Shown: piece by piece, positions 1,925 through 19,362 of the stretch
Numbering within the stretch: the first letter of the stretch is position 1
Layout of the letters: the number at the start of each line of letters is the position of its first letter
NCBI GenBank assembly: GCA_016218105.1
Contig: JACRET010000036.1
Span: 5,304-69,303 of the forward strand
Length of the DNA stretch: 64,000 bases
Reading direction: 5' to 3'
Origin: Deltaproteobacteria bacterium
Lineage (GTDB): Bacteria; Desulfobacterota; GWC2-55-46
The notes under the pieces: model-generated
Seen by the model: the letters and a program-made list of their open reading frames with translations, nothing else
What the model was told of the DNA's origin: nothing
The model's database searches: none
Program-made: the position numbers and the translations under genes

Positions 1925-4273
1925 CTAGATAAGCTTGCGAATGACCTCAAGCAGATTGCTCTGGTTGAAGCTGCTCTTTATTATGTAGGCGTTTGCGCCT
2001 ACCTCGATCCCTTTTTCACGGTCCTCACGCGTTTCCAGGGCCGTAACCAGCACGACGGGCATCTCTGAAAGCTTCTTTTCGTTACGTATCTTTGCCGTAA
2101 GCTCGAATCCGTTCATCCTGGGCATCTCGATATCAGAGACGACAAGGTCGAAATGCTCCGTTTTAAGTGCGGTTATCGCGTCCACGCCGTCAACCGCGGT
2201 TTTAACGTTATATCCCGCGCCCTCGAGGATGTTCTTAAGCAGCATCCTTGATGTGATCGAATCCTCGACTATCATGATCGATCTGCCGGCATGAGACTCC
2301 TCAGCCGGGGATGGCGCCGCGGCAGTAGACTTGAATTTGATGGCTGTCCTTACAAGGTCTATGGCATTGAGTATCGGCACGGGTTTGCCTGAGCCGAGGA
2401 TGGCCGCCCCGGAAACGTTACGCACCCTTGTCATCTGCCTTCCAAGGCTCTTTACCAGCACCTCCTGCTCTTCGAGAAGGGCATCCACGCCAAACGCGAT
2501 CTTCTTGTCAGCCGCGGCAAGGACAAGCACAGTCTGGTAAGCGCTCTCCTGCGCCTTTTTTTTCTTTTTGGGGAGGTCCAGCGCCCTGCCAAGCCTTACG
2601 AATGAGGCCGGAGCGCCGCCGATCGGAACCGTTTCCCTGTTCTCTACCGTTTTTATTTCGTCCTTTTTAATCCTGAGCGTCCGTTCCACGTTAACCGTGG
2701 GTATTATAAACACCTGCTCGTCAGCCTCAACCAGCACCCCTCTGAAAGTGGCTATCGTAAGCGGGAGCACTATGCGGAAGGCGGTGCCAGCGTTATGCTC
2801 CGTTTCAACCTTGATCGTGCCGCCGAGCTTATCCACCTTTTCGCGCACTATGGCGAGCCCCAGTCCCCTGCCGGAGATATCCGTTATTATGGGGCTGGTA
2901 GAAACCCCTGAATTGAAGATGAGCAGACAGGCCTCTTCGGCGTCGAGCCCGTCCGCATCGGGCTGAGTCAATACGCCGTTTTTTACGGCCGCTTCCTTTA
3001 CCCTCGCCATGTTTATGCCGGCGCCGTCATCGGAGACGAGGATCTCTATTTTGTTCCCGCCCATATGCGAGATGGCTATCCTCAAGGTGCCTCGTCTCGG
3101 CTTTTTGAATATCTCCCTTTCAGCCGGGCTTTCTATCCCGTGGTCTACGGAATTTCTGACCAGGTGAATGAGCGCGTCTTTCATCTCCTCGAGGATCCTT
3201 CTGTCTATTTCGACGTTCTCCCCGCTGATCACAAGGTCTATTTCCTTTCCGACCTCCAGGGAGATATCCCTGACAAGCATCGGGAAGCTCTCCAGGAGTA
3301 TTGAGAAAGGAAGCATCATCGCTTTCTTGAGGTCGTCGAGTATCGAATCCACCATCCTGTCGAGCGACCTGCTGTTATGGGCCGCGGACTTTGAAACGGT
3401 GCGCGCCCTCGTCTCCATAAGCTTTATATATCCCTGCGACCAATTGAAAAACTCCTGGAGCTTCGCTGTAAAGAGCGGCCCACCGCCGCTCCCCTCTTTC
3501 GCTAGGTGGGCGGGCAGCACATCCCTGTAAAGCTTGGAGGACTGTGATTTGAGCTCTTCTATCATGGATATCACTTCGTTAAAGCCGTTCGCCTGGCGAT
3601 TTGCCGCAAGCTTCACCGGAAGCATCTCTTCCGCCTCAAGCAGCAGATTCCCGAGCTTCTCGGTCGATATCCTTATGGTATCTATCGAGGCTGCCGGATG
3701 GCGCTCTTTCACAAGCCTTTTTGGCAGGACGCCCTGCGCGGCTGTTATCTCCGGGGCATTAGCCTCTTTTTTCGCGGCCGGCTTGGGTTCCGGCTGTTTC
3801 GCCGGCTCCTCTTCATGGACGTGCGATTCGAACCGGTCGCTTAATATCCTCACGGAGGGCCCGCCTGCCTCGAACCGGTCGATCTCCTTCACAAGTTTCG
3901 ATATGTGTATCTTATCGATCCCCGGCTGACCCGACTCAAGGTTTGAGACCAGGGTCTTTATCGTATCGATCGCGAGGTAGAGCACGTCAAAAAGCTCCCT
4001 TGTATGGGTTATCTGCCGCTGTTTCCAGGCGGCGAAGACCCCCTCCAAAGACTGGCATATCGATTCGATCTCGGAGATATTTACGGCGCGCGCGGCCCCC
4101 TTGAGGCTATGGGACTCCCGATAGACCGTCTCGATGACCTCCATCTGAACCTCTATGGGAGGCATGCGCTCAAGCTCCAAAAGGCCGGCTGAAATCGTGT
4201 TCAGGTGCTCAAGGGCCTCGACCTCGAAGGTCGAAAGGAGACGCTTTCTGAATTCAAATTCCTTCTTATCCAT
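1925..4273 (-). CDS. cheA: Hybrid chemotaxis histidine kinase CheA with C-terminal receiver domain (WspE/FrzE-like)
   Basis: Hpt (SHSLKGAARAV), an HATPase_c core (HLVRNSVDHGIE, DDGAGI, GRGLGLAIV), a CheW-like domain, then REC (SIMIVEDSITSRMLL...SDIEMPRMNGFEL...KS). Confidence 0.9.
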   Translation of the reverse strand: MDKKEFEFRKRLLSTFEVEALEHLNTISAGLLELERMPPIEVQMEVIETVYRESHSLKGAARAVNISEIESICQSLEGVFAAWKQRQITHTRELFDVLYLAIDTIKTLVSNLESGQPGIDKIHISKLVKEIDRFEAGGPSVRILSDRFESHVHEEEPAKQPEPKPAAKKEANAPEITAAQGVLPKRLVKERHPAASIDTIRISTEKLGNLLLEAEEMLPVKLAANRQANGFNEVISMIEELKSQSSKLYRDVLPAHLAKEGSGGGPLFTAKLQEFFNWSQGYIKLMETRARTVSKSAAHNSRSLDRMVDSILDDLKKAMMLPFSILLESFPMLVRDISLEVGKEIDLVISGENVEIDRRILEEMKDALIHLVRNSVDHGIESPAEREIFKKPRRGTLRIAISHMGGNKIEILVSDDGAGINMARVKEAAVKNGVLTQPDADGLDAEEACLLIFNSGVSTSPIITDISGRGLGLAIVREKVDKLGGTIKVETEHNAGTAFRIVLPLTIATFRGVLVEADEQVFIIPTVNVERTLRIKKDEIKTVENRETVPIGGAPASFVRLGRALDLPKKKKKAQESAYQTVLVLAAADKKIAFGVDALLEEQEVLVKSLGRQMTRVRNVSGAAILGSGKPVPILNAIDLVRTAIKFKSTAAAPSPAEESHAGRSIMIVEDSITSRMLLKNILEGAGYNVKTAVDGVDAITALKTEHFDLVVSDIEMPRMNGFELTAKIRNEKKLSEMPVVLVTALETREDREKGIEVGANAYIIKSSFNQSNLLEVIRKLI

Positions 4274-4290
4274 TATGGCTCCGCCGGACG

Positions 4291-5928
4291 CTATACCTTA
4301 TAATGCTCCACCAGCACCTTAAGCTTCTGTCCCAGCTCCTGCAGATTCCTTACCGTCATCTCGACCTGTTTTGTGGACGCCGCGTTCTGGGTCGTTGCCT
4401 GCTTTATGTTGTTCATCGCGAGAGCGACCTGATCCATTCCCACAAGCTGCTGCTGGCTGGAAGCGGCTATCTGTATTACCGCCTGCGACGCTTCCGCTAT
4501 GCTTGAGGCCAGCGCCTGTATGGAATCTCCCGTGCCTGAGGACTGGCTTACCGTGCCATCTACGGCCTTGCTCCCTTTTTCAGTCGCCATGACGGCGGCG
4601 CTTGAGGACCTCTGAATATCGTTAAGTATCGTCCTTACCTGCTTGGTCGCCTGCTTGGACTGCTCAGACAGGCTCTTTATTTCCTGGGCCACCACTATAA
4701 AGCCTTTGCCGTGCTCGCCGGCCTTTGACGCCTCTATCGAGGCGTTCACCGCAAGCAGGTTCGACTGCTCGGCAAGGTCGTCGACAGCCGCTATGATCTC
4801 GCCTATGGCCTGATTATGCTCCGAAAGCTTTACTATGGTATCGGCTATGTACTCGACCTGCTCTTTTATCCTGTTTATCCCGCCTATGGTCTCGTTTACC
4901 AGCCTGGTGCCGGCCTGGGATACCTGCACGGCCGTCTGGGCTATTTCAGATACGTGCCTCGCTTTCTGCGAGGAAACGTTGGCTGTCTGCTTTACCTCCT
5001 CGACGGTAGTCGTCGTCTCGGACACGGCTATGGCGGTCTGCTCGGTGCCGGAGGCCAACTCCGCGGTTGTCGCCGCTATTTCGTTGGAAGAGGAAGCGAG
5101 CACCGTCACTGCCTCGGTTATATCCTTTGTCTGCTTCTGAAGGCGCGCGACCATGGAACGGAAGGTCTGCGTCAATATACCGACCTCGTCGTTCCTGCCG
5201 CTGTCGGGTATATTCACGGTAAGGTCTCCTGCCGCGATGCGCCCGGCGATCTCTGAAATATCCTTGAGCGGGGCCGCTATCAGGCGGTTCAGGGCCGCCG
5301 CCACTATCGCGCTGATTAAAACAGCCACTATTCCGATGATTATAAATATTGTTATCGACTGGTTCGCGCTCTCTTCCGACCGCTTAAGGTGGCTGTTGGC
5401 GCCCGCCACAGCCTCTTTTCCAAGTTCCATTACTATGGCGTTCATCTTTTCATGGCGCTGCGCCTGTATGCCGAGCGCCAACCTTCTGGCCTGGTCGATT
5501 TTCCCTTCGTAGATAAGCGGTATTATCTGGGAGTCCCTGGTTTGCACGAAAGCGTTTCTTATCTTATTCAGTTCCTCGAGCCTGGCGAGAACGGAAATAT
5601 CGTCCCTGTTCCTTTCAAGGAGCCTCCTGGATATCGTATCGATCTGCTCGCTGCTCTCTTTTATGCCCTGATGCCGCAACTCCTTGTCCGCGCGCGACGT
5701 TGCGGCCATCATCGTAAGAAGATCCACCCTGACCTCGTCCTCCCTGTTCTCAAGCATCAGAAAATCCACGCTGTTGGTGTACTCGGAAGCCACGATGTCC
5801 CTCTGTGACTTCTGCATTATCGATATGTTCCTCGTGGCCGTAAAGATGACGATCACAAGGAACAGGATCGCCACGCCAAAGCCGGCGATCAGCTTCAGAC
5901 GTGTGGAAAGATTAACAAACCAGTTCAT
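4291..5928 (-). CDS. mcp: Methyl-accepting chemotaxis protein (two TM segments, helical sensor, HAMP, MCP signalling domain)
   Basis: N-terminal TM, a second TM followed by HAMP (AGDLTV), and the conserved hairpin tip [38 protein letters not shown]. Confidence 0.9.
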   Translation of the reverse strand: MNWFVNLSTRLKLIAGFGVAILFLVIVIFTATRNISIMQKSQRDIVASEYTNSVDFLMLENREDEVRVDLLTMMAATSRADKELRHQGIKESSEQIDTISRRLLERNRDDISVLARLEELNKIRNAFVQTRDSQIIPLIYEGKIDQARRLALGIQAQRHEKMNAIVMELGKEAVAGANSHLKRSEESANQSITIFIIIGIVAVLISAIVAAALNRLIAAPLKDISEIAGRIAAGDLTVNIPDSGRNDEVGILTQTFRSMVARLQKQTKDITEAVTVLASSSNEIAATTAELASGTEQTAIAVSETTTTVEEVKQTANVSSQKARHVSEIAQTAVQVSQAGTRLVNETIGGINRIKEQVEYIADTIVKLSEHNQAIGEIIAAVDDLAEQSNLLAVNASIEASKAGEHGKGFIVVAQEIKSLSEQSKQATKQVRTILNDIQRSSSAAVMATEKGSKAVDGTVSQSSGTGDSIQALASSIAEASQAVIQIAASSQQQLVGMDQVALAMNNIKQATTQNAASTKQVEMTVRNLQELGQKLKVLVEHYKV

Positions 5929-5965
5929 ACATTCCTCCTCTGAGATATGCTTCCCAGCATGTTTT

Positions 5966-6580
5966 TCATTCTATATTTTCATAAACTATTATAGATTTGC
6001 CGGAAAGGAGCTTGCCTGCGTCGAGAACGGTGATGTTCTCGTCGGTAACCCCCTTGAGATATTCCTCACGTATCCCCGTGAGCGTGGGGAGGATTTTAAG
6101 GCTATCCGGGTTTATATACCTGCACCCTGTAATAGAGTCAGCCAGTATGCCGAATTCCATATCCTCCGACTTGAGTATTATCACCTTGTTCAGGTCTGTC
6201 AGCCCTTTTTCCGGAAGATCAAAGAACTTCTTTATATCTATCACTGAGATTATCTGTCCGCGGACGTTTATTATCCCGAGCACGAAGGAAGGCGTGCAGG
6301 GGACTGGCGTAAGCTCCGTCATCGGGAATATCTCTCTTACGAACGCGGATTCAACGGCATATTTCTCGTAAGCGAGCATGAACTCGACGGCCTCGATAAA
6401 ATCAGCCTGGGCGACAGGTTTTTCCACGGAGGCGAAGAGTTGCGCCCTCTTCCGTAAAATCTCGCTTTTTCGCTCATGCGAGGGCTGAAGGTTTTTACTG
6501 AGGGCCTCGCCGAAGCTGTCTATGCGGCGGCGCACCTCGTCCCAGTCTATCTTCCTGCCGCTGGCCTCCCGCTCCGTCAT
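5966..6580 (-). CDS. cheW: CheW-like coupling protein with an N-terminal extension of about 60 aa
   Basis: CheW fold motifs (VLGIINVRGQIISVIDIKKFF). Its start overlaps the cheR stop by 4 nt (6577-6580). Confidence 0.85.
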   Translation of the reverse strand: MTEREASGRKIDWDEVRRRIDSFGEALSKNLQPSHERKSEILRKRAQLFASVEKPVAQADFIEAVEFMLAYEKYAVESAFVREIFPMTELTPVPCTPSFVLGIINVRGQIISVIDIKKFFDLPEKGLTDLNKVIILKSEDMEFGILADSITGCRYINPDSLKILPTLTGIREEYLKGVTDENITVLDAGKLLSGKSIIVYENIE

Positions 6581-8079
6581 GCGAGCCTCTCCTTAATGAT
6601 CGAATTTATTATCTCTTTAAGCCTTCCCGCCGTAACCCCGTCTGATTCGGGCAGCACCTCTTCCGGGTTCTCTGCCGAAAGAAGATCGAGGGCGTTCCTG
6701 TAATGCCGCGCCGCCGCGCCAGAGTCGCCGCGCGAAAAAAGCAGGTTCCCGAGCACGAATTGGGCGAGGACAAAATTATGATCCAGATAAAGGGCCTTCT
6801 TAAGGTAATTTATAGCGTCTTCGGCCCTGCCTTGTTCCTGAAGTATCGTGGCAAGCAGATAGTACTGGACGGGGTTCAATGTATCCGCCGATATCGCCTT
6901 TTCACACCACTTTGCCGCAAGGTCGAGCCTGCCCTGGTTCGCGCAGGCGCGAGCGAGGAGGTTCATGACTTTCCAGCCGTTATCACCCGCAAGGGCGGAC
7001 TCTTCAAGGGCCAGTGACGCTTCCGCGTATCTCCCCCGCTCGAAAAGGGAGACGGCTTCGTCATATTTGGAAGGGGCCGCCTCTGCCTCTGCGGGAGGCT
7101 CATCAGTAACAGCGTTTGCGCTCCGCTCCTCTTTGATATCGTCTTTAACGGGCGGGAGCCATTTATATTCGGCGGGACCGGGTATATAATGGGGCGGCGC
7201 GGGCCTCATCTCCTCCATTTCCTCGCTCTTCCTGTACAATGTCGTATTGGACATGTTTACGGGCCTGAAAAGGGGTGATCTGGTCCTTAAGGCCTCTGCA
7301 GGACTTACAAGCAGGTATCCATCGTCCATCAGTGAATTATGGAGGCCCTTAATCACCCTTCCGGCCACCTCTGCGGAAAAATACATGATCACATTCCTGC
7401 AGAATATTATGTCTATCGCGTTGGTGTTGTTCAGGAGAGAGGGATATACGTCTTCCGCCAGATTTAAATAATTAAAACTGACCATTTTCTTTATTTCGGG
7501 GCTTATTTCGTACAAGCCCTCTTTGATCTTTACGAAATATCCGTTCTTAACCCACTCGGGCGTGCCGCGGAAAGACCATTCGGAATATACCCCGGCTGAA
7601 GCCTTTTTGATGGCCGTGGCGTTGATGTCCGTGGCGAGTATGCTTATATTCCAGTTCTTAAGGTCCGCGAGCATCCTCTTGAGGAGTATGGCAACGGAGT
7701 AAGGCTCTTCTCCCGTGGAACACCCGGCGCTCCAGACCCTTAAACGCCGGAGGCCGCTCTGTCTTGCGCTGATAAACTCCGGAAACACATGCTCCTCAAG
7801 GGCTCTGAAGCTGTCCTGATCCCTGAAGAAATAGGTCTCGCCCACGGTCAGGTGGCCTGCCAGCGTCTCTATATGCTGTCTTGTCAGGGTGGTGGACTTA
7901 AGCCAATAGGTAAACTCCTCGATGCTGCTGAAACCGAGATCAGCGGAAGCGGACCTTACGGAGCGCTCAAGGTCAGCGAAACGGGATTCGGGGAAGTGGA
8001 GGCCCATCATGGACGATATCAACTGGCTCAACTCATTGAGGAGGGTCGTATGGCTGGCGGGTATTGTGTCCGTCATCAT
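6577..8079 (-). CDS. cheR: Chemotaxis methyltransferase CheR fused to C-terminal TPR repeats (WspC/FrzF-like)
   Basis: CheR SAM-binding core (RVWSAGCSTGEEPYSVAILL, IFCRNVIMYF), followed by about 170 aa of TPR-like repeats (YYLLATILQEQGRAEDAINYLKKALYLD). Confidence 0.9.
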   Translation of the reverse strand: MMTDTIPASHTTLLNELSQLISSMMGLHFPESRFADLERSVRSASADLGFSSIEEFTYWLKSTTLTRQHIETLAGHLTVGETYFFRDQDSFRALEEHVFPEFISARQSGLRRLRVWSAGCSTGEEPYSVAILLKRMLADLKNWNISILATDINATAIKKASAGVYSEWSFRGTPEWVKNGYFVKIKEGLYEISPEIKKMVSFNYLNLAEDVYPSLLNNTNAIDIIFCRNVIMYFSAEVAGRVIKGLHNSLMDDGYLLVSPAEALRTRSPLFRPVNMSNTTLYRKSEEMEEMRPAPPHYIPGPAEYKWLPPVKDDIKEERSANAVTDEPPAEAEAAPSKYDEAVSLFERGRYAEASLALEESALAGDNGWKVMNLLARACANQGRLDLAAKWCEKAISADTLNPVQYYLLATILQEQGRAEDAINYLKKALYLDHNFVLAQFVLGNLLFSRGDSGAAARHYRNALDLLSAENPEEVLPESDGVTAGRLKEIINSIIKERLA

Positions 8080-8538
8080 TTACGCCTCCCTCATGGCATC
8101 GTCGAGGGCTTTTTCCTCATCAAGGGACAGAAAGCCGTCGATATCGTGTATCAGCGTGATCCCGTCTTTTAACTTGATCACGCCTTTGACATGCTCCATC
8201 CCGGGCAGTATCTCAGCCGGAGCTATTATATCCTCGTCACCGCATTCAATTACCCCGTAGACCTCGTCGGCCACAATACATACCGGCCTTTTTGAAGTAG
8301 CGGCTATTATAAGCTGGTCGCTCAACATAATGTCCTTTGACGGGAGGCTGAAGCGGCAGCGTATGTCTACGACGGGGATGATCCTTCCACGGATATTTAC
8401 GATACCAAGCACTATAAGAGGGGCGTTAGGAAGCGTCGTGACCTCTATCGCGGGGACAACCCTTTCGACATTCGGCAGGGGCAGGGCAAATCTTAGGTTA
8501 TCTAAACTGAATAAGAGAAACTGTTTCGGGGCGTTCAT
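8080..8538 (-). CDS. cheW: CheW coupling protein
   Basis: CheW domain (FLLFSLDNLRFALPL...VLGIVNIRGRIIPVVDIR). I prefer the ATG at 8538 (AAGGGA RBS) over the GTG at 8574 used by the track. It directly abuts cheR. Confidence 0.85.
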   Translation of the reverse strand: MNAPKQFLLFSLDNLRFALPLPNVERVVPAIEVTTLPNAPLIVLGIVNIRGRIIPVVDIRCRFSLPSKDIMLSDQLIIAATSKRPVCIVADEVYGVIECGDEDIIAPAEILPGMEHVKGVIKLKDGITLIHDIDGFLSLDEEKALDDAMREA

Positions 8539-8738
8539 TAGGCAGTCCCTTTTTAAAACGGATTGAGGCCCCACCTGAGCCGGTAAAAAGAAAAGTATGT
8601 AATTTTTCTATAACTTACCTTAAAACCGTCAAAAATTCAAGTTAATACAATTATTGGGCAGACGTTCCCCGCTCATAGGGAATCGGAAACGCCTGCCCTT
8701 GAAGTGGTTGTTTTTAAAAAGGAAAATCGAAAAAGGCC

Positions 8739-9845
8739 TTAAAGGGCGGACCGCACCTTCTCTCCGTCCTCATAACATGCTTCCAGAGCGGCATCAGTGA
8801 TACTATGGAGCGGCAGCACCGTATCTACCCCGCCGGTCTTTATCGCTTCTTTCGGCATGCCGAAGACGACGCAGGAGTGTTCATCCTGTGCGATATTGTG
8901 CGCGCCCGCCTGTTTCATCTCAAGCATCCCCAGCGCCCCGTCGTTGCCCATGCCGGTCAATATCACCCCCACGGCGTTTTTCCCGGCATATTGGGCCGCT
9001 GAGCGAAAGAGCACATTTACGGAAGGGCGGTGCCGGGATACCGGAGGGCCGTCTTTTATTTTCACATAATACCTCGCGCCGCTGCTCTTGAGGAGCATAT
9101 GGCGGTTTCCGGGGGCGAGGAGCGCCCGGCCCCTTATTACGGTATCGTCATCCTCGGCCTCTTTAACTGAAATAGCGCAAGAGGCGTCAAGATGCCTGGC
9201 GAATGTGGCTGTAAACTTCTCAGGCATATGCTGGACTATTACTATGCCGGGGCTGTCGGCCGGCATGGATTGGAGAAATACCTTGATAGCCTCTGTGCCG
9301 CCGGTAGACGCCCCGACCACTATGACCTTCTCGGTCGTCCTTATCATCGCCTTCGTACGCTTCCCGATAACGGCGTCGGGACTGAGGTTTGGCGGAATAT
9401 GGAGCGGGTGCGCCAGGGTGGTCCGCTTTACTTTTGATACAGAGGCGGCCTTTATGGCATCGCAGAGGAATATCCTCGATTCCTCCAAAAACTGCTTTGT
9501 TCCTATGCGGGGCTTTTGTATGATATCCAGCGCGCCGTACTCAAGGGCCTTAAGGGCCGTCTCAGAGCCGGATTCGGCGAGGCTCGATACGATTATCACC
9601 GGTATCGGGTGCTGAGTCATGATCTTATGGAGAAACGTGAGCCCGTCCATCCGGGGCATCTCTATATCCAGGGTTATCACATCCGGCGCATTCTCACGCA
9701 TCTTCTCCGCAGCCATAAAAGGATCTCCAGCCGTTGCCATTACCTCAAGCTGAGGGTCTGCAGAGATTATCTTTGATAATATCTGCCTTGCAACGGCTGA
9801 GTCGTCAACTACCAGCACCTTGATTTTCCTGCCTTTTATTTCCAT
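8739..9845 (-). CDS. cheB: CheB methylesterase (REC + esterase), last gene of the second Che operon
   Basis: [17 protein letters not shown]...[16 protein letters not shown], then [18 protein letters not shown] and LTGMGNDGA. The ATG at 9845 is preferred; the track ORF extends to a GTG at 9875. Confidence 0.9.
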
Positions 9846-9919
9846 AGAACTCGCCCAGCAATCAACCACCTGCACAAGCTACGGGGCGAAGACCACCAAA
9901 ACACCCCAGGAAAGCTGGC

Positions 9920-10405
9920 TCAGCCCTGCCCCTTTACCACTTTTTTGACGAAGACTTCCCCGGTACTCGTCAGAAACATCACCTTCCGGCCAGCGGTTCC
10001 TCCGATATCCTTACCCAGCACCATGATCCTGTTCTCTATGAGCGCGGTCTCGGCGAAAGAAATATTCCGGGCCCCGATATTCAATAATCCACTTGAGTTC
10101 TCAAGGATATTGGCCCCGCCGAATACCTTGGCCCTGAGATTACCCCTGCTACTGCCCAGGGATATCATCTTTTCGACCAGCATGGGAATAGCCACATTGC
10201 CGTACTTGGGGGTCTGAAGCCCATCGCCGTTCCAGAACGGCAGAAGGTAGTGGTTCATGCCTCCAAAATGAAGCGCCGCGTCCCACAGGCACACAGATAT
10301 GCATGAACCCAGCACGGTCGTTATCATGTGTTGTCCGCTCTGGGCGAAGATCATCCCCGGATAAAGGAAATGGCTGTCTGGCTTTGCCGCGTTTTCGAGA
10401 TTCAT
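9920..10405 (-). CDS. cheD: Chemoreceptor glutamine deamidase CheD
   Basis: CheD signature TVLGSCISVCLWD...GGMNHYLLP...KVFGGANIL...NIGARN. Its ATG overlaps the stop of the upstream kinase-like gene (TAATG at 10403-10407). Confidence 0.85.
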   Translation of the reverse strand: MNLENAAKPDSHFLYPGMIFAQSGQHMITTVLGSCISVCLWDAALHFGGMNHYLLPFWNGDGLQTPKYGNVAIPMLVEKMISLGSSRGNLRAKVFGGANILENSSGLLNIGARNISFAETALIENRIMVLGKDIGGTAGRKVMFLTSTGEVFVKKVVKGQG

Positions 10406-11304
10406 TAAAACCTCTCGCCATCGCTGCTCCCGAAGAAAAACTCGTTTCCGTCAACCGAGAAGTCGGAGGCTTCAGTTGCAGCCATTTCCGGTATTGATAT
10501 CGTAAAAACCGCGCCGGCCCCCTTTTTGCTGACAACGGTTATCGTCCCGCCAAGCAGTTCGAGCACCGATTTTATTATACTGAGTCCAAGCCCGTGCCCC
10601 CCGTGTCTCTTGGTAGCGCCTGTCTCAAGCTGGCGGAACCTTTCAAATACGGCTTTCTGATCCCTTTCATCTATACCGATGCCGTAATCGGTTACGGATA
10701 TATTCAAGCGGCCGCCGTCTTTCCAGGCCCTTATGGATATAGGCCTGCCCTCGATGCTGTACTCTATAGCGTTTGAAAGAAGGTTTAAAAGTACGGACTG
10801 GAGCTTTTCCGGGTCAGTCCTGAAAAAGTTATTTTTCGCGGAGTCGGTAAGTTCATAGGTGATATTGAGCCGCTTCTCATTTGCTCTGTGCTGGAAGGAC
10901 TCTATCGTGCTCTTAAGGAACGAATCCATATCCAGGGCTGCCGTGCTTAATACCGTGTCCCCCGCCTCGAGCTCCGCGGCCGTAAAGATGTTCCGGAGCT
11001 GGAAGCTCAGGTCAAAGGCTTCCCTGTGTATCGTGCTGACGAGGTTTTTGCAGATATCCAGGTCTACCTGGCTTTCGTTTGATATTATGAGCTCGCACAT
11101 CGTAAGTACGGATGTAAGCGGGTTATTTATCTCGTTCCTTATGTTCGACAGGAAGTGGCCTTTTACCTTTTCGGACTCCACGAGCCTTTCGTTCAGGCCC
11201 GCGAGTTTTTTTGTCATGGCCGTCAGGTCGTGGTAAGCCTTGTCCTTGGCTTGAAGACGGCTCATTATCTCTTTAACTATCTCGTCGTCCGAAAATTTAT
11301 TCAT
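10405..11304 (-). CDS. Soluble histidine-kinase-like protein (coiled-coil + HisKA-like + HATPase_c) with a non-canonical H-box
   Basis: N box LLNLLSNAIEYS, G1 VTDYGIGI, F box FERFRQ and G2 GGHGLGLSI are all present. The H-box reads KGHFLSNIRNEINNPL, with Asn where SHELRTPL has the His. There is no TM segment. Confidence 0.75.
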   Translation of the reverse strand: MNKFSDDEIVKEIMSRLQAKDKAYHDLTAMTKKLAGLNERLVESEKVKGHFLSNIRNEINNPLTSVLTMCELIISNESQVDLDICKNLVSTIHREAFDLSFQLRNIFTAAELEAGDTVLSTAALDMDSFLKSTIESFQHRANEKRLNITYELTDSAKNNFFRTDPEKLQSVLLNLLSNAIEYSIEGRPISIRAWKDGGRLNISVTDYGIGIDERDQKAVFERFRQLETGATKRHGGHGLGLSIIKSVLELLGGTITVVSKKGAGAVFTISIPEMAATEASDFSVDGNEFFFGSSDGERF

Positions 11305-11339
11305 GGCCTTGTCCCTCCGGCGCTCCGTACATGATTTTT

Positions 11340-11891
11340 TTAGAAAAACCTGAAATTGCCGCTCCTCCGGGAATCCCCGCCGCCAAAGACTTTTATGGGC
11401 CTGAGTATCACTTTCCCGGTATGCGTATAAAAAAATATCTTCCTGCCTTCGGAGCCTCCCGTATTCGATGCCGAGACCTTAAGCCCTTTGCTTTCAATGA
11501 TCCCGTAAGCCATCCTGAGGTTCTGGTACCCCACATTGACTCTCCTCGTATCGTAAAAGGCCGCCCCGCCGAAAACCTTGACCTCAAGCTCGTCCATGTC
11601 TCTTATTCCGAGTACCTTAAACCTGCTGAGCATAAATGTTATCGAGCTGTCTACGTACTTGAAGGCCTCTTTCAAGTCCCTGCGGCAGGAACCGCACTCA
11701 CCTGTGCATGCCCCTTTCACGCGCGGGGATATCGAATGGCATATGGAACCGGCCCTGAGCGAACGATCGAACAGGGCGACCGATACGCATGACCCGAGGA
11801 GCGTATGGACGAGCGCCGGCCTGTTGGCGAAGAAAAGTTCTCCTGGATTGAGAAACACGATCGGGAGGTCCGTGCACAGGGGGTTCATCAC
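11340..11891 (-). CDS. cheD: Divergent CheD paralog with a Cys-rich insertion
   Basis: TLLGSCVSVALFD...SICH...KVFGGAA...NVGYQN matches the CheD core, including the catalytic Cys and His positions. An extra segment KGACTGECGSCRRD follows the His. The start overlaps the cheR stop (ATGA at 11888-11891). Confidence 0.7.
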   Translation of the reverse strand: MMNPLCTDLPIVFLNPGELFFANRPALVHTLLGSCVSVALFDRSLRAGSICHSISPRVKGACTGECGSCRRDLKEAFKYVDSSITFMLSRFKVLGIRDMDELEVKVFGGAAFYDTRRVNVGYQNLRMAYGIIESKGLKVSASNTGGSEGRKIFFYTHTGKVILRPIKVFGGGDSRRSGNFRFF

Positions 11892-12757
11892 TTTTTCCTG
11901 TAGATGGAAGGAGCCACCTTCGAAAAAGGCAGGTCAAAGCCGCTCAGGGTCTCTGAGTGTCCGATAAACATATAGCTGCCGGGGTGCATGCACCCGGCGA
12001 ATTTATTGAAAAGCGTTGCCTGCGTCGCCTTGTCGAAATATATTATGACGTTCCTGCAAAATATTATGTCCTGCTTTTCAGGAAAGCCGAAATCCTCTTC
12101 CATGAAATTAAGCCTCTTAAGCTTCAATCGCGTCCTCAGTTCCGGGACTATCCTCACAAGGCCTTTTGAAGAGTCTTTGCTTTTCAAGACATACTTCTTT
12201 TTTAGATCCAACGGCACGGGTGTTATCCGATCTTCCTTATAGATGCCTTTTCCGGCCATGCTCAGCACCCTTGTGGAAATATCGGTTCCTGTTATCCTGT
12301 AATCGAAATCGAGTTCCGGACAGGAGCCCGAGTACTCATTTAATACCATCGCGATCGTGTAAGGCTCTTCGCCGGTCGAGCATCCGGCGCTCCATACGGA
12401 AAGCGGCTTTTTAATCCCCGCTTCACAGGTTCTTATGAGATCCGGGACAGCCGTACGCGTGAGAAAATCAAAGTGATAGGGTTCCCTGAAAAAATCGGTC
12501 TTATTTGTGGTGACGAGGTCTATCATATGGACAAGCTCCTGCTCCAGGCCCGCGGGACTGAACACAAAATCGCAGTATTCGCTGAAGCCTTTCATGCCCA
12601 GAGCCCGGAGCCTTTTCTGGAGCCTCGATTCCAGGAGGGCCCTCTTTGCGGGCGGCATCTTTATCCCCAGTTCCCTGTGGATGAAGCCGCTTAAAAGCCC
12701 GAAGACCTTCTCATCCATTCTTATGGTATTAAGAACCGCCCGCGCATCGTCTGCCAT
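11888..12757 (-). CDS. cheR: Chemotaxis protein methyltransferase CheR
   Basis: N-terminal helical domain plus the SAM-MTase core (VWSAGCSTGEEPYTIAMVL, IFCRNVIIYF). Confidence 0.9.
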   Translation of the reverse strand: MADDARAVLNTIRMDEKVFGLLSGFIHRELGIKMPPAKRALLESRLQKRLRALGMKGFSEYCDFVFSPAGLEQELVHMIDLVTTNKTDFFREPYHFDFLTRTAVPDLIRTCEAGIKKPLSVWSAGCSTGEEPYTIAMVLNEYSGSCPELDFDYRITGTDISTRVLSMAGKGIYKEDRITPVPLDLKKKYVLKSKDSSKGLVRIVPELRTRLKLKRLNFMEEDFGFPEKQDIIFCRNVIIYFDKATQATLFNKFAGCMHPGSYMFIGHSETLSGFDLPFSKVAPSIYRKK

Positions 12758-12782
12758 GTTTAATCCCCAAGCCCGGCGCGTC

Positions 12783-13277
12783 TTAAGCCGCCGGAGCCTT
12801 TATGTCCTGAACTACGGCGAGCTCTTCGGTAGAGAAGATCTCGTCTACCTCCAAGATGATTATGAACTGGTCGTCGCGCTTGCCCATGCCTTTGATAAAC
12901 TCGGTATTGAGCCGTGTGCCTATCCTCGGGGGCGGTTCTATCTGCCCCGGCTCGAGCTCTATGACCTCCTGAACCGAATCCGCAAGGGCGCCCAATACGA
13001 GTTTTTCCCCCTCAAGGTTGATCTCGACTATGATGATGCAGGTATTGACTGTCTGCTCCGTCTTTGACATGCCGAATTTGAGGCGCATATCGACGACCGG
13101 CACAACGCTGCCCCTGAGGTTGATAACCCCTCTCATGAAATCCGGCGTCCTCGGCACTTTGGTAACCGATGTAAAATCAAGCACCTCTCTGACCTTGGAG
13201 ATATCGAGGGCAAACACTTCGCTGTCCAGCTTGAACGTCAGGTACTGCGTCGTTTCCGCTACCGTGGGCACACTCAT
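12783..13277 (-). CDS. cheW: CheW coupling protein
   Basis: QYLTFKLDSEVFALDI...MRGVINLRGSVVPVVDMRLKFG is a typical CheW. Confidence 0.9.
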   Translation of the reverse strand: MSVPTVAETTQYLTFKLDSEVFALDISKVREVLDFTSVTKVPRTPDFMRGVINLRGSVVPVVDMRLKFGMSKTEQTVNTCIIIVEINLEGEKLVLGALADSVQEVIELEPGQIEPPPRIGTRLNTEFIKGMGKRDDQFIIILEVDEIFSTEELAVVQDIKAPAA

Positions 13278-13289
13278 CGCAAGCCTCCA

Positions 13290-14987
13290 TTAATATTTTA
13301 CGAATTCCGTATCTTCTTCGTCGTGCGTATCCAGATTCAGGGCCACCCCTCCGCTGTTGGCCGCAGCCTTGGCGGTTTTGGCGGACGCGGCCTGGGATAT
13401 GTGCGCGACCTTCGACCTCGAAGCCGGGTGCTTTGCGCCTTTTACGGCCTTAAGCTGCCTTGTAACCGGCGCGCCTGAATCCGAGATCTTGAAGAACGCT
13501 ATAGACGACTGGAGCTGTTCGGCCTGGGAAGATAGCTCCTCTGAAGTTGACGCAAGCTCCTCCGCCGCTCCGGCGTTCTGCTGGATAACCTGGTCAAGCT
13601 GCTGGAGGGCCCTGTTGATCTGGTCGGCGCCGCTGTTCTGTTCTCCGCTTGCCGCGGTGATCTCCTGTACAAGCTCGGAGGTCTTCTGGATATCAGGCAC
13701 GAGCTTCGCGAGCATCTCTCCGGCTTTCTCGGCTATCTGCACGCTTGTGGAAGAGAGCTGGCTTATTTCTCCTGCGGCTGTCTGGCTTCTCTCCGCGAGT
13801 TTCCTTACCTCGGATGCCACGACGGCGAAGCCTTTGCCGTGCTCGCCGGCCCTGGCTGCCTCGATCGCCGCGTTCAGGGCGAGGAGGTTTGTCTGCCTTG
13901 CTATCTCTTCTATGATAGATATCTTTGAGGCTATCTCTTTCATCGCGCTCACGGTCTCCGCCACGGCCTTGCCCGACTCCCTGGCGTCTGTGGCCGATTT
14001 ATTCGCGATCTTTTCCGTCTGCTGGGAGTTATCCGAGTTCTGTCTGATATTGGATGTCATCTCTTCCATCGAGGAAGACGTCTCTTCGATCGCGGCGGCC
14101 TGTTCGGTCGCACCCTGCGATATCTGTTGAGCGCCTGAGCTCAGCTCCTGGCTTCCGCCCGCAACATTGTCCGAAACGGCGCGCACATCCGCGACAACGC
14201 TTCTGAGCTTGTCGACCATGTTCTTCATGGCGGAGAGGAGCTGGCCTGTCTCGTCCTTGCCTTTTAATTCTATGTCTATAGTAAGATCGCCTACGGCAAG
14301 CTTATTAGCCACGTTCTCGGTAAGGTCCGACAGCGGCCTGGCGATCATCCTTGTAAGGAGCATGACAGCCGAAATAGCTACCGCTATGGCAAGGAAGGTA
14401 GCTCCTATGACAACGTTCCTGGTAAATATATAATCGGTCGCCGCCTGATCGTAAAGCTGCTTGCCGACCTCATTCTGTATCTCTATCAGCCTCTGGGATT
14501 TTTGATCCACAACCTTGAATTTAGCGCCCGCATCGTTAGCAGCATTGAACTTAGCCTGTTCAAATTTGCCTTCAAGCGCCCATTTGTAGGTATTTGTCCT
14601 TGATTCGTCATAGGCCTTCCAGGCCGGTATAAATTCATCAAGAACCTTTTTCTCCTCCGGTACCAGGTATGTCTGAGCGTACTTGTCTATCAGAGTGTTT
14701 ATCTCTTTCTCGTCCTCAGCGGACTGAGTGAAAATCGCCTGCCGCTTCGCGAGATCGGTCTCGTTCACGATCTTAAGCGCGCCCATCCTGATATTAGCGA
14801 GCGACATATTCACCTTCCCGAGGTCCACAACAGGGACAAACCTGTCATCGTAGAGCGACTGGAGATCGCCTTTCAGGTCCATAATCCTGTTTATGCTTAG
14901 GGCTCCCAGGAGCAGCACGAAGACCACTACCAGGGCAAAGCTTAAAGTAAGTTTGGAGCTTGTTTTCATGTCTCTAAAAAAATTCAT
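13290..14987 (-). CDS. mcp: Methyl-accepting chemotaxis protein (4-helix-bundle-type periplasmic sensor, HAMP, MCP domain)
   Basis: Start placed at the ATG at 14987 ([23 protein letters not shown]..., GGAGG RBS). The longer track ORF would overlap cheA. HAMP is VGDLTI; the tip is [38 protein letters not shown]. Confidence 0.9.
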
Positions 14988-15111
14988 TACGTCCTCCGAT
15001 TTTTTAGATTTACAGGTAGCTGACACACTCTCACCGCAGCCAGCTCCTTTTTTAGCCTGATAGAATATGTGTATCTCCGGAAAACTCCCTTTCCATCCTT
15101 TCCCTCCCTGA

Positions 15112-17283
15112 TCATGAGGCCCTTGAGGCCTCATGCTCGACGCAGGCGATAAGCCTTGGGATATCGAGTATCAGCGCGACCTTGCCGTTTCCCATAATGG
15201 TCGCCCCTGAAATGCCCTGGATGTCCCTGTAGACCCTTCCGAGCGATTTGATGACCGTCTGCACCTCACCGTAAAGCTCATCCACCACAAGCCCTATCTT
15301 TACCGAGGCGTATTGCACGACCACGATATTTTCGAAACGGGGGCTCTCACCCGCGAGCCTGAAAAAATCGCGGAGCCTTACATAGGGGAGAACTTCGCCC
15401 CTCAGATTGATGTAGCTTCTCCTGCTGGCGGCCTGCCTTTCCGCGTCAGAAAGTTCCACGCATTCAACCACCATATCTAGCGGTATTACGTACGAAGAGC
15501 CCTGTACCCCGACCATGAAGCCGTCTATGATGGCAAGCGTGAGCGGCAGCCTTATGACGACCTTGGCGCCGGCGCCCTCGGCGCTTTCAACATCAACGGT
15601 CCCTCTTAAGGATTCGATATTACGCTTGACGACATCCATTCCAACGCCCCTTCCCGAAAGCTTCGTTACCGCTTCCGCCGTCGAGAAGCCCGGCTCGAAT
15701 ATAAACCGGAATATTTCATTGTCCGTAAGAGACTGCGCCGTGTTTGCGAGCCCCAGGGCTATCGCCTTATCGAGTATCTTTTTGCGGTTGAGCCCCCTGC
15801 CGTCGTCGATTATCTCTATTACTATCGACCCGGCGTCGTGATATGCGTTGAGGCGGATAGTCCCTTTTGACGGCTTGCCCGCGCTTACCCTCTGTTCGCT
15901 CGTCTCTATCCCATGGTCTGCGGCGTTACGCACGAGGTGCATCAGAGGGTCGCTTATCTTCTCGACCACCGTCTTGTCAAGCTCGGTCTCCCCACCCTTG
16001 ATCTCCAGCTCTATTTCCTTGCCGGTCTCCTTGCTTATATCCCTTATTACCCTGTTAAAGCGGCTGAACGTCTCGCCTATCGGCACCATCCTGATCTTCA
16101 TCGAAGTATCGCGGATCTCCTCCACGAGGCAGAGCATCGACGAGGCGGACTCAAGCAGCCATGTGTCTTTTATACGCTGGGCCTGCTGGTCTATATTGGC
16201 GCTCGATATCACGAGCTCGCCGACGAGGTTTATCAGGGAGTCGAGTTTATCCGCGTCTATGCGGATAGTCTTCGCCTCTTTCGACTTGACCTCCTGCGTC
16301 TTTTTCTGCTTAAGGAGCGCGGCGTCTAGAATGTCTTGCTGAACCATGTGCTCGCTTACCAATATTTCCCCTAGCAGGCGTTTTCCTTCCTCCGCTCCCG
16401 CATCCGGCCTGCCCTGGAGCTTCAACGCCTCTTCCAGTTCCGGTTGGGTGAGCGCGCCGCCGTTGACAAGTATCTCCCCAAGCAGGAGCGTATCTTCCGG
16501 CAAGCCGTTTATAAGTTCCACATAGGATTCGATGCGGCTGTGAGGCGGAAGGATGTGTATCTTGCAGTCCTCACGGACGAATTCGAAGACATCTTCAATA
16601 GCCTTTTTGTCAAAATCACTTTTGAAATCCACTTCGAAGCCGAGGTAACAGCTCTCCGGGTCTGCAGCTTCAAGCGGCGGAATGGAATCGAAGATGGTAG
16701 TGAGGCTTGTGACCTCACCGAGCTTTGAAAGGTAATTGATGAACGGGATCGGGTCCATCCCTCCCCGCAGCACGTCGGGCCCGAACCGGAGAGAGATATG
16801 CCATGCGTCAGTTTGGGCCAGCGTGCCCGTTATCGCAGCCGCGGGGGCATCCGCTCCTTTAGCTTCTTTGCGGGGCTTTTCCTCTTTTGTCCCGAGTATC
16901 TGAGTGAGCCTTACCAGGAGCTCCGCGTCTTTTGCCATGACGGTGGCGGTCAGCGGCGCATCGGATGCCGCCAGCTCTATAAGGGCTTTTATATGGTCCC
17001 TGCATTCGAGAAGGAGCTCTATAGCCTCATTTGTTATCCCGATCTCGCCCTCGCGAACCTTCGAGAGGAGATTTTCCACTACGTGAGTGAACTTTTCGAC
17101 ATGATCGATACCCAGGATCCCGGACGCCCCTTTGATCGTATGGGCTGACCGGAAAAGCGAATTTATGGTGTCCTGGTCATCGGAGGACTTCTCCAGTATG
17201 AGAAGCGCGTTTTCCATCTCGACAAGAAGCTCCGAGCTTTCGGTTATGAACGTCAGTTTCGCCTGGGTTAATTCTATCTCCAT
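15112..17283 (-). CDS. cheA: Chemotaxis histidine kinase CheA
   Basis: Hpt ([12 protein letters not shown]), a dimerisation region, the HATPase core ([27 protein letters not shown]) and a C-terminal CheW-like domain. Confidence 0.92.
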
Positions 17284-17597
17284 GCTGCCCCTTTGCTGCT
17301 GTCTGCTTCGAAATAGGTTCTCATATTGTAGAGTTCGATGACCGTCGCGGCGGCCTGACTGATATTCACCAGCGTAAGCTCTCTGCTTTTTTGAACAGCC
17401 TCCTTCTTCGCGAGCAGGAGGAGCTGAAATCCCGAGGTATCCATCTCGTTTACCTCTGAAAGGTCCATAGCAAGGTCCCTGTTTTCAGCCAGCGCGTCGA
17501 GCAAACCCTTTTTCAGGGCTGGCGCGTTGTATATGGTCATCTCTCCCGATATGCGCATCAAATCCCCGCGCTCATTATTTTCCATCATTATCTCCAC
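17274..17597 (-). CDS. STAS-domain protein (anti-sigma-factor-antagonist fold) embedded in the Che operon
   Basis: 107 aa; RISGEMTIYNAPALKKGLLDAL...LSEVNEMDTSGFQLLLLAKKEA is SpoIIAA/STAS-like. It overlaps the cheA start by 10 nt. Confidence 0.7.
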   Translation of the reverse strand: MEIMMENNERGDLMRISGEMTIYNAPALKKGLLDALAENRDLAMDLSEVNEMDTSGFQLLLLAKKEAVQKSRELTLVNISQAAATVIELYNMRTYFEADSSKGAAWR

Positions 17598-17613
17598 GCG
17601 CTTCCTCCTTGCC

Positions 17614-17982
17614 TCAGGGCATTATCAATTTTGAAATGGCTTCCAGCATCTGCTCGGGCTTGAAGGGTTTGACGACCCAGGCCTTCGCCCCGGCCATCTT
17701 TCCCTCCTGTTTTTTATTCTCCTGGGATTCCGTCGTGAGCATTATCACAGGGGTGAATTTATAAGAGGCGCTGGTCTTGATGTTTTTGAGAAATGAGATT
17801 CCGTCCATGTTAGGCATATTCACGTCGCATATCATGAGGTTTACCTTCTGGCCCTGGAGCTTGCCTATCGCGTCTCTCCCGTCGCATGCCTCGATAACGT
17901 CGTAGCCGGCCTTCTTAAGGGTAATATTCACGACCTGCCTGATCGAAGCCGAATCATCGATAACCATTATTGTCTTTGCCAT
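17614..17982 (-). CDS. cheY: Single-domain response regulator CheY
   Basis: 122 aa; IMVIDDSASIRQVV...CDVNMPNMDGISF...KAWVVKPF. Confidence 0.92.
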   Translation of the reverse strand: MAKTIMVIDDSASIRQVVNITLKKAGYDVIEACDGRDAIGKLQGQKVNLMICDVNMPNMDGISFLKNIKTSASYKFTPVIMLTTESQENKKQEGKMAGAKAWVVKPFKPEQMLEAISKLIMP

Positions 17983-18018
17983 CTTAAGCCTCCTGGATAT
18001 TCCCCGCCGGGTTGATTT

Positions 18019-19362
18019 TTAAAAGAAAGTAACGTCGCTCTGCGCGACCCTTGGCGCCTTCGCGTTGGCGCTTTTTTTACTGCCCCCGCCCTGGTTCACG
18101 ATTTCGAGGTGAATGTTTCTCTGCTGCTCCATCACATAATAGCTGTGAATGTCTTCCATATTGAATTCCGGAAGCCTGCACTCCGAGGTGCACAGCTCCG
18201 GCATTGCAAGGCAGTCTTGAAGCCTTCTTATGTAAGCGTCGGTATCTGAAATGGTCCTCATGACAAGCTCAATCTGCTGGCGGACGATATCCTGGAACTG
18301 CACATTGGCAAGCAGATCGGTCACTTCCCTGGCGACCTCATCGCTCCCAAGGCTTACCTGGGCGAGTATCTCCTTATTAAGCGTATCCAGCTCGCCATAG
18401 CTTTTTCCGAGCTTCGCGAGCTGCGCCTCAAGGCTCAGGAGGAGCGTGCCTTCTTCCTTGTTATTGTGCTGGTTGAGCTTTACCGCGAACTTCTCCTCTA
18501 TGTCCTCGGCCATCTGAACCATGGCATGGCCTATCTTTGTGGCGGCCTGCTCGGACTGCGTGGAGAGCTTCCTGACCTCTGAGGCGACTATGGCGAAGCC
18601 TCTTCCGTGTTCGCCCGCCCTTGCCGCTTCTATGGCGGCATTCAACGCAAGCAGATTCGTCTGGTCGCTTATCTCCTTTAAAAGATCGACAAACTTGGTC
18701 ATCGATCGCGCCTTTTCCGCGAGCGCCAGCACCGCCTTATAATCCTTGTCAACCTCTGAAAGGCGTTTTTCCACGTAGTGCCGGAGGGCCGAGATCGTCT
18801 CTTCGTTCGCGGCTATGGTCTCTCCGGAGACTGTGGCGAGGGACTCGCTCTCCTGCTGGAGCTTGAGGAGGGTCTGCTGCATTCCTCCCATTGACCGGTC
18901 TATGGCCTGTGATTGGGAGATGATCATGTTCGCGGCTGAATCGGTTTCTCCTATGATGTTGTTGAGATGTGCCTTTGCCAGCTTGTTTATATCCTGCTGG
19001 GCCTCGAAGTAGCGGCCCACCTTCGCTTCCCTGTTCTGTAAATGCTCGCTGTAAGCCGTAATCTCATCTACCAGTTCTTTTTCCGTCTCCGCTATCCTCA
19101 AAAGAGACCGGCCTGCCGATTTAAAGCTGATGGCCTGCACTATCACGACGGCCGTGATTACCCAAAAAGCGTCTTCCAATGCCCTTGAATATCCCTGTGA
19201 AAAAAAGCGGCTTAAGAAGCCCTGTATGTAATCCCAGAAAAAAAGCTCTATAAAGCCGGGAATAATCAAAGCCAGGGCCGTTGTTGCGAAAAAGATCCGT
19301 TTGTAGGTGGGGATGTAGAGGAAGAGGAAGGAATCGGATCTTCTATTTAGAGTTTCTGCCAT
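18019..19362 (-). CDS. Short membrane-anchored MCP-like protein (two N-terminal TM helices, no periplasmic sensor domain, MCP tip, Cys-containing C-terminus)
   Basis: The TM helices are close together. The tip is [38 protein letters not shown]. The C-terminal region carries [15 protein letters not shown] and [12 protein letters not shown]. It is the first gene of the Che2-like operon. Confidence 0.75.

Follow-up and report, generated by a model that had tools for sequence, protein, structure and literature searches.

HKL (His-less histidine-kinase-like) is a 299-aa protein encoded on the minus strand (10405..11304) of a 64,000-nucleotide stretch of contig JACRET010000036.1 from a Deltaproteobacteria bacterium (here called the window, to which all coordinates refer unless another locus is named). 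HKL has the core of a histidine kinase but carries an asparagine, Asn57, at the position of the phospho-acceptor His, and its gene lies in a chemotaxis operon directly upstream of cheD. HKL represents a conserved His-less HisKA family that is defined by the acceptor-site Asn and by obligate pairing with CheD, and whose function we infer. Rather than being a broken kinase, HKL probably serves bacterial chemosensory systems as a hitherto undescribed accessory protein. No description of the HKL-cheD pairing was found in Pfam/NCBIfam or in literature searches, including the paper on F7 evolution (PMC7184735), and NCBIfam returned only sub-threshold matches of HKL to assorted kinases and no family model. 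HKL homologues are named "HAMP domain-containing (sensor) histidine kinase" in the databases. This annotation is misleading, as HKL has neither a HAMP domain nor a sensor domain nor a phospho-acceptor His.

An asparagine at the phospho-acceptor position

HKL matched the Pfam HisKA domain (PF00512) over residues 48 to 115 with 30.0 bits (cut-off, 26.9). This match is weak yet significant, and it is weak because the H-box is altered. The match to HATPase_c (PF02518) covered residues 164 to 273 with 96.9 bits. No sensor domain, PAS domain or transmembrane segment was seen in the 299-aa protein (translation, Pfam and AlphaFold2 model), so HKL is predicted to be soluble, and Pfam gave no HAMP match. 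An AlphaFold2 model built from 120 homologues (mean predicted local distance difference test [pLDDT] score, 79) shows a DHp-like helical hairpin (10963..11289, minus strand), in which helix 1 spans residues 6 to 74 with an N-terminal coiled-coil extension and helix 2 spans residues 82 to 114. The hairpin, which overlaps the HisKA match, is followed by an alpha/beta CA (GHKL ATP-binding) domain (residues 122 to 272; 10489..10941, minus strand) with an ATP lid (residues 222 to 237) that is predicted to be disordered. The same architecture and fold are found in HK853, CrdS, EnvZ and NtrB (phmmer E value, 2e-29). The top Foldseek matches in the PDB were HK853 chains from HK853-RR468 complexes (target-normalised TM score, approximately 0.85), and DivL ranked fourth (4q20; E value, 1e-19). 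The likeness to the RR468-complexed conformation was given little weight, as AlphaFold2 conformations are biased by training data. By its model, HKL has the DHp-CA fold of histidine kinases, and by its alignments it is classed as a structural member of the HisKA/HATPase_c superfamily that fails the defining feature of a histidine kinase.

Read on the minus strand, residues 48 to 63 of HKL are K48 G49 H50 F51 L52 S53 N54 I55 R56 N57 E58 I59 N60 N61 P62 L63. When HKL was compared with all PDB chains by phmmer, this segment aligned without gaps to GacS ("KSEFLANMSHEIRTPL") and to HK853 ("KTEFIANISHELRTPL"), which places Asn57 in the column of the phospho-acceptor His. The Asn57 codon is AAC (11134..11136, minus strand), and the degenerate H-box from F51 to L63 (FLSNIRNEINNPL; 11116..11154, minus strand) is the best-conserved stretch of HKL in the homologue alignment. 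The first-pass annotation of this DNA had put Asn57 (codon 11136..11134) where the phosphorylatable His should be, and the gap-free alignments confirm that assignment.

Conservation of Asn57 was then assessed in sets of relatives of different depth. A search of 5.8 billion proteins, which returned many matches of approximately 300 aa, supplied a close set consisting of the top 120 homologues (47 to 73% identity). When one genome per species was scanned, at least 516 genomes proved to carry HKL relatives, and the 80 best loci were retrieved. From 1.84 billion cluster representatives (50% identity), a profile search yielded a top-150 list that contained 106 short family members along with 43 long canonical kinases, which served as comparators. 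Asn57 was invariant in the close set (120/120), as were F51, S53, N54, I55, E58, N61 and P62. All 80 genomic loci encode Asn at this position, 51 with AAC and 29 with AAT, and this mix is synonymous turnover under purifying selection. Asn was likewise present in 104 of the 106 cluster representatives, the others having His (P0141) and Cys (P0207), whereas His occupied the column in all 42 canonical kinases that have a residue there (the 43rd has a gap). Maximum-likelihood analysis of the DHp-CA region grouped the 106 short proteins in a single clade, the branch of which is long (0.76 substitutions per site; support, 0.68). P0141 is nested deep in the Asn clade beside an Asn57 sister, and its His57 is therefore a reversal or an error; its gene is still followed by cheD. 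To judge from these distributions, Asn57 is an ancient, selectively maintained feature of single origin and not the product of chance or of a recent lesion. The partial gene upstream of the single His57 member (L081, 1..825) encodes a PilZ-like segment (...RVIDISHRGIGF...), which hints at a context related to cyclic di-GMP.

The first-pass annotation had also raised the possibility that the kinase phosphorylates a shifted His, namely His50 (codon CAC; 11155..11157, minus strand). A register shift that puts His50 at the acceptor position was excluded by the alignments, all of which are gap-free with Asn57 in the His column. Position 50 is variable, with S35/N30/D26/H25 in the close set and N37/H29/Q16/R6/D5 among the cluster representatives. 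By the conservation check that the annotation had itself proposed, the shifted His is thus refuted. H234 is present in 60/106 and H237 in 84/106 cluster representatives, and no alternative His is universal in either set, which excludes H50, H54, H234 and H237 as a conserved substitute. It is extremely improbable that HKL is a working kinase that autophosphorylates on His50 or a canonical kinase that was inactivated recently. His50 does lie seven residues before Asn57 on the same helix, and 25 of the 120 close homologues also have His there, but the position takes S, N, D, H or Q without preference. Moreover, Asn57 is ancestral to the whole clade and has been kept through the codon turnover described above, and His57, which the annotation had named as the mark of a recent inactivating mutation, occurs only in P0141, within the Asn57 clade. 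In the HKL proteins of Magnetococcales, position 54, which precedes Asn57 by three residues, is His and not Asn (F-V/I-S-H-M/V-K-N-E-I-N-N-P; loci L032, L038, L054, L055, L058, L059, L062, L064, L066, L068, L072 and L078-L080). This is a lineage-specific His located one helical turn from the former acceptor site.

Residues E58-I59-N60-N61 (11122..11133, minus strand) form an E-x-x-N sequence at H+1 to H+4, the phosphatase-motif position of HisKA kinases, so that both the acidic residue at H+1 and the Thr or Asn at H+4 are present in HKL (E58 and N61). The pair sits on DHp helix 1 in the AlphaFold2 model. Position 61 (H+4) is Asn in 104 of the 106 representatives and Thr in 41 of the 43 canonical comparators, and position 60 (H+3) is Asn or hydrophobic in the family and Arg in 41/43 comparators. 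Asn54 is an ordinary HisKA feature (Asn in 35/43 comparators), as is a polar residue at H+4.

The ATP-binding boxes, which the first-pass annotation had described as intact, proved to be so only in part. Its description stands for N174/N178, D206-x-G-x-G, F220/F223 and G236-x-G-L-G. In the close homologues N174, N178, D206, G208, G210, F220, F223, G236, G238, L239 and G240 are invariant, and the Mg ligand N178, N174, the adenine-binding D206 (97/106), the G1/G2 glycines and the F-box phenylalanines are kept family-wide. The description fails for the N-box Lys, which is replaced by Glu181 (10762..10764, minus strand), and for the Thr of the G2 box (here G-H-G-L-G-L), which is replaced by His237 (10594..10596, minus strand). 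Position 181 is Glu in 118/120 close homologues, E61/K27 family-wide and Lys in 42/42 canonical kinases; position 237 is His in 116/120 close homologues, H84/Q14/N4 family-wide and Thr in 40/43 canonical kinases. Gln225 at the F-box Arg position was rejected as a family-specific loss, since the nearest canonical hybrid kinases also have Gln (39/43). The N-box Lys contacts the ATP phosphates in structures of PhoQ and HK853, and its replacement by Glu in HKL reverses the charge; the residue four before the Mg-binding Asn (Asn174 in HKL) is the catalytic Glu in SpoIIAB-type kinases and GHL ATPases. From this pattern of conservation, nucleotide binding by the family looks selected for. Beyond the CA domain, HKL ends in a tail (F-S-x-D-G-N-E-F-F-F...E-R-F-COOH; 10408..10473, minus strand) that is conserved but disordered, with pLDDT below 50 over residues 278 to 299. 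G286 (115/120), F289 (118/120) and the terminal F299 (116/120) are kept in the close homologues, and by this measure the tail is a further signature of the family.

Pairing of HKL with cheD

The partner gene cheD (161 aa; 9920..10405, minus strand; Pfam CheD, 95.5 bits) begins where HKL ends, the HKL stop codon and the cheD ATG overlapping as TAATG with base 10405 shared. To annotate the 80 fetched loci, BLAST was run against the window proteins. cheD was directly downstream of HKL in 77 of the 77 loci that could be judged, and the remaining three stop at a contig edge. The junctions from HKL stop to cheD mostly fall between -4 and +15 nt, and the pairing spans Deltaproteobacteria/Thermodesulfobacteriota, Nitrospirota, Magnetococcales, Rokubacteria and Bacteroidota. 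The upstream neighbor of HKL varied (cheR in 19 loci, dnaN in 12, cheB in 5 and unrelated genes in 32), and the two genes are found inside che operons, on their own or flanked by dnaN and gyrB. Because cheD is constant while the upstream neighbor varies, HKL-cheD is a self-contained, mobile two-gene module with cheD as the sole constant partner. The HKL-linked CheD proteins share the signature NHYLLPxWNGxGL...P.YGN.AI. Thr30, Cys35 and His52, which we take to align with the catalytic triad of Thermotoga CheD, are invariant in 78/78 of these sequences.

In 12 magnetotactic Nitrospirota, the pair lies in an origin-proximal block with the order dnaA-dnaN-HKL-cheD-gyrB(-gyrA) (L013-L015, L017-L020, L022, L024, L031, L033 and L042; e.g., L014, 4521..13255). 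The order dnaA-dnaN-HKL-cheD-gyrB was confirmed with Pfam for Ca. Magnetominusculus xianensis. The place between dnaN and gyrB is usually occupied by recF. No other che genes were seen within 7 kb of these 12 pairs. In L032, the single Magnetococcales locus for which open reading frames were listed, the HKL-cheD pair is bordered by large opposite-strand open reading frames.

One of the 106 cluster representatives (P0246/L082) has a receiver (REC) domain fused to the N terminus of HKL, with cheD still next, and this single case ties the family to receiver signalling. The metagenomic contig in question (L082, 150..3236) encodes a REC-EAL protein, the REC-HKL fusion (413 aa, with Asn57 kept), CheD and a GAF histidine kinase. 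A candidate for a natural fusion of HKL to CheD, P0269 (464 aa), was rejected as a frameshift artefact with an out-of-frame, low-complexity middle where the CA domain belongs. At this locus (L083, 2995..4389), which is annotated as a single CheD-domain protein, HKL is frameshifted in the CA domain and runs into the cheD frame. The fused open reading frame is due to an error of assembly or annotation, or else it is a pseudogene.

Possible functions of the HKL-CheD pair

The reading that we prefer, if only tentatively, is that HKL is a kinase-dead DHp-CA dimer of phosphatase type, or one that senses CheY~P, which works with CheD and is an analogue of CheC on a kinase scaffold. With no conserved substitute His, HKL would be unable to autophosphorylate in the canonical way, but it would have kept the parts needed to act on a phosphorylated receiver, namely, the DHp docking helices, E58 and N61 at H+1 and H+4 and the nucleotide-binding CA domain. 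The change from His to Asn would remove kinase activity and back-transfer, while the active site would still have a polar side chain able to form hydrogen bonds. The dimer would bind CheD and hold ADP or ATP as a cofactor, not as a phosphodonor. The HKL-CheD complex would bind CheY~P and/or CheB~P, which it would dephosphorylate or sense, and phosphorylation of the response regulator would thereby be coupled to the availability of CheD for receptors. The broader reading drawn from the first-pass annotation, a pseudokinase or a protein that acts on or with a partner and in either case no canonical autokinase, survives.

An E-x-x-N sequence is reportedly the catalytic pair of CheC and CheX. Phosphatase activity requires the Thr or Asn at H+4 in CrdS, in HK853 and in two further HisKA kinases (PMC3510030). 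CrdA~P has a half-life of 0.7 min when wild-type CrdS is present, 2.6 min for H371A, 47.6 min for N375A and 53.5 min when there is no kinase, and the His contributes only modestly to the CrdS phosphatase (PMC3510030). NtrB (NRII) with the H139N mutation "only functions as a phosphatase," and the phosphatase activity of wild-type NtrB is switched on by the small partner PII (bioRxiv 10.1101/122606). The H139N mutant has the same change at the acceptor as HKL and is a precedent for both the proposed chemistry and the control by a partner. It is, however, an engineered mutant of a real kinase with PII as partner, whereas the Asn of HKL is natural and ancient and the partner is CheD. HKL and the bifunctional HisKA kinases have a common H-box frame, F-L-x-N-x-x-[H]-E-x-x-[T/N]-P-L, with the polar H+4 residue as the phosphatase site (PMC3510030), and the same Mg and adenine ligands and G boxes. 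HKL differs from these kinases in having Asn for the phospho-His, Asn for the H+3 Arg, Glu for the N-box Lys and His for the G2 Thr; it lacks a sensor or transmembrane domain, has the Phe-ending tail and has cheD, not a response-regulator gene, as its obligate partner gene.

The CheC-CheD systems of Bacillus subtilis and Thermotoga maritima resemble HKL-CheD in that a partner with E-x-x-N on a helix is genetically coupled to cheD in che operons. For CheC, a role has been proposed in which it acts on or senses CheY~P and governs the availability of CheD, and the CheC-CheD interaction is described as being strengthened by CheY~P (PMC3513319). HKL differs from CheC in its DHp-CA fold with a nucleotide-binding domain and has no CheC/CheX Pfam match, and the partnership of HKL with CheD is seen at the level of gene adjacency (77/77 loci).

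Several points weigh against the CheC-like reading. The phosphatase activity, the CheD binding and the nucleotide binding of HKL are all properties that we infer. E58 is invariant, yet in CrdS the acidic residue at H+1 is needed for kinase and not for phosphatase activity (PMC3510030), so that the conservation of E58 is not explained by the HisKA phosphatase model alone. Some HisKA phosphatases need the His, as PleC H610A loses phosphatase activity (PMC3510030). The conserved H+3 Arg is lost in HKL (N60), nucleotide binding may be weakened or changed by the replacement of the N-box Lys with Glu, and a cultured member of the family (L070) has Asp at H+4. This member belongs to Rhodocytophaga aerolata KACC 12507, where the gene order is cheR-HKL-cheD-cheB. 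Many HKL-cheD pairs stand alone, with no response-regulator gene nearby (e.g., the 12 dnaN-HKL-cheD-gyrB loci). Finally, no genuine HKL-CheD fusion was found, the frameshifted P0269 being the lone candidate.

A possible but doubtful alternative makes HKL a pseudokinase or adaptor without catalytic activity, the DHp/CA scaffold of which, perhaps reading the ATP/ADP state, sequesters CheD or delivers CheD to receptors; in a variant of this idea, HKL might bind CheY~P without dephosphorylating it, as DivL binds DivK~P. A stoichiometric complex is suggested by the strict pairing of HKL with cheD and by their translational coupling, a relaxation of the canonical chemistry by the absence of the N-box Lys (E181) and the H+3 Arg; the disordered conserved tail with its final Phe has the look of a docking peptide. 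DivL of Caulobacter is among the best sequence and fold matches of HKL, and DivL and RetS-type proteins are, like HKL, HisKA/HATPase_c proteins whose acceptor has been replaced (by Tyr in DivL) or can be dispensed with and that signal through partner binding. However, DivL is a large, membrane-anchored, multi-PAS regulator of CckA with Tyr at the acceptor site, DivK~P as partner and no link to CheD, none of which holds for HKL; HKL is analogous to DivL-type pseudokinases and homologous to them only in the shared core. The most conserved residues of HKL are N57, E58, N61, P62 and the Mg/adenine ligands, which is unexpected for a pure scaffold, and the adaptor alternative overlaps the CheC-like reading. 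An active ATP-dependent kinase or ATPase with a non-canonical acceptor, i.e., a Ser, Thr or His on CheD, on the STAS protein of the operon or on a receptor, is unlikely. GHKL-fold kinases that are independent of His include the plant ethylene-receptor and phytochrome kinases, PDK/BCKDK and SpoIIAB/RsbW. The invariance of the ATP-binding N174, N178, D206-x-G-x-G and G-x-G-L-G, the invariance of the general-base-like E58 although the His is gone, a STAS gene with a D-T-S-G motif in the same operon and a weak match to HATPase_c_2 (RsbW-type, PF13581; 24.6 bits) would all fit such an enzyme. However, the last score falls short of the 27.4 bits that Pfam sets as cut-off, and the RsbW/SpoIIAB-type anti-sigma Ser kinases lack the DHp that HKL has. 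The STAS gene is present in 17/80 loci, while cheD is universal, which excludes the STAS protein as a universal partner or substrate. In addition, the ATP-phosphate-contacting N-box Lys is Glu in HKL and most of the family, Asn174 stands where SpoIIAB-type kinases and GHL ATPases have their catalytic Glu, and no conserved acceptor residue was identified in HKL.

It is quite improbable that HKL is a substrate of CheD, a Gln deamidase/Glu methylesterase, and that deamidation of H-box N54, N57, N60 or N61, or of Q102, switches its state. An intact amidohydrolase triad is obligately paired with an H-box that carries four Asn in eight residues, and CheC is said to bind CheD as a receptor mimic. Against this, the HKL family has no conserved receptor-type site ([ASTG]xx[QE][QE]xx[ASTG]), the known targets of CheD are Gln and methyl-Glu, not Asn, N54 and the polar H+4 residue are ordinary in HisKA proteins, and the MCP (methyl-accepting chemotaxis protein) of the operon offers CheD many normal Q/E sites. 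A specific form of the idea, and a very improbable one, is that CheD converts Asn57 or a neighboring H-box Asn to Asp at the former acceptor, giving a residue that could carry an acyl-phosphate (through the CA domain, with Glu58 as general base) or could switch the affinity for CheY~P. If true, editing by CheD would mean that a kinase-like signalling protein is armed post-translationally by a deamidase.

CheD occurs widely in chemosensory systems that do not have CheC, which is to our knowledge its only known partner. HKL would add a new accessory component to bacterial chemotaxis as well as to F7-like and "alternative function" pathways. Its family is found in the genomes of at least 516 species from several phyla, including magnetotactic Nitrospirota and Magnetococcales. 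The family is also a natural experiment on how far HisKA phosphatase activity needs the His, as the change fixed in HKL is the same one that makes NtrB phosphatase-only.

The chemosensory operon around HKL

The host operon (8739..19362, minus strand; Pfam and open reading frame list) runs from a first MCP at 19362 to cheB at 8739 in the order MCP, cheY, STAS, cheA, MCP, cheW, cheR, cheD', HKL, cheD, cheB. No CheC, CheX or CheZ was seen by Pfam among the che genes of the window. By gene order, the operon matches the published description of the F7 type (Pseudomonas aeruginosa Che2-like), with cheY-cheA-cheW/MCP-cheR-cheD-cheB and nearby STAS-domain genes (PMC7184735). Described F7 clusters, however, have cheR-cheD-cheB without a kinase-like gene before cheD, and HKL-cheD also occurs outside che clusters.

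The STAS-domain gene (107 aa; 17274..17597, minus strand; Pfam) lies between cheY and cheA. Its D-T-S-G motif presumably marks the site at which SpoIIAA-type antagonists have their phosphorylatable Ser. The 17 HKL loci with a STAS gene are of the che-cluster type and are not stand-alone pairs. Upstream of HKL, cheD' (183 aa; 11340..11891, minus strand; Pfam CheD, 65.4 bits) encodes a divergent CheD paralogue in which a Cys-rich insertion (C..H..C-x3-C-x2-C) follows the catalytic His and the WNG/YGN signature of the HKL-linked CheD proteins is absent. Outside the window, only the two closest loci (L001 and L002) have cheD' upstream of HKL; cheD' is lineage-specific and stands outside the core HKL-cheD pair.

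Eight candidate Q/E modification sites, four of them with Gln, lie in the operon MCP of 614 aa (13290..15134, minus strand), which ends in ...DTEFVKY. Its final five residues, E-F-V-K-Y, are similar to the aromatic pentapeptide by which some receptors tether CheR/CheB at their C terminus. A second chemosensory cluster (1925..8574, minus strand), consisting of cheW, cheR-TPR, cheW, MCP and cheA-REC, directly follows cheB, and its composition resembles that of the Wsp/ACF (alternative cellular function) type.

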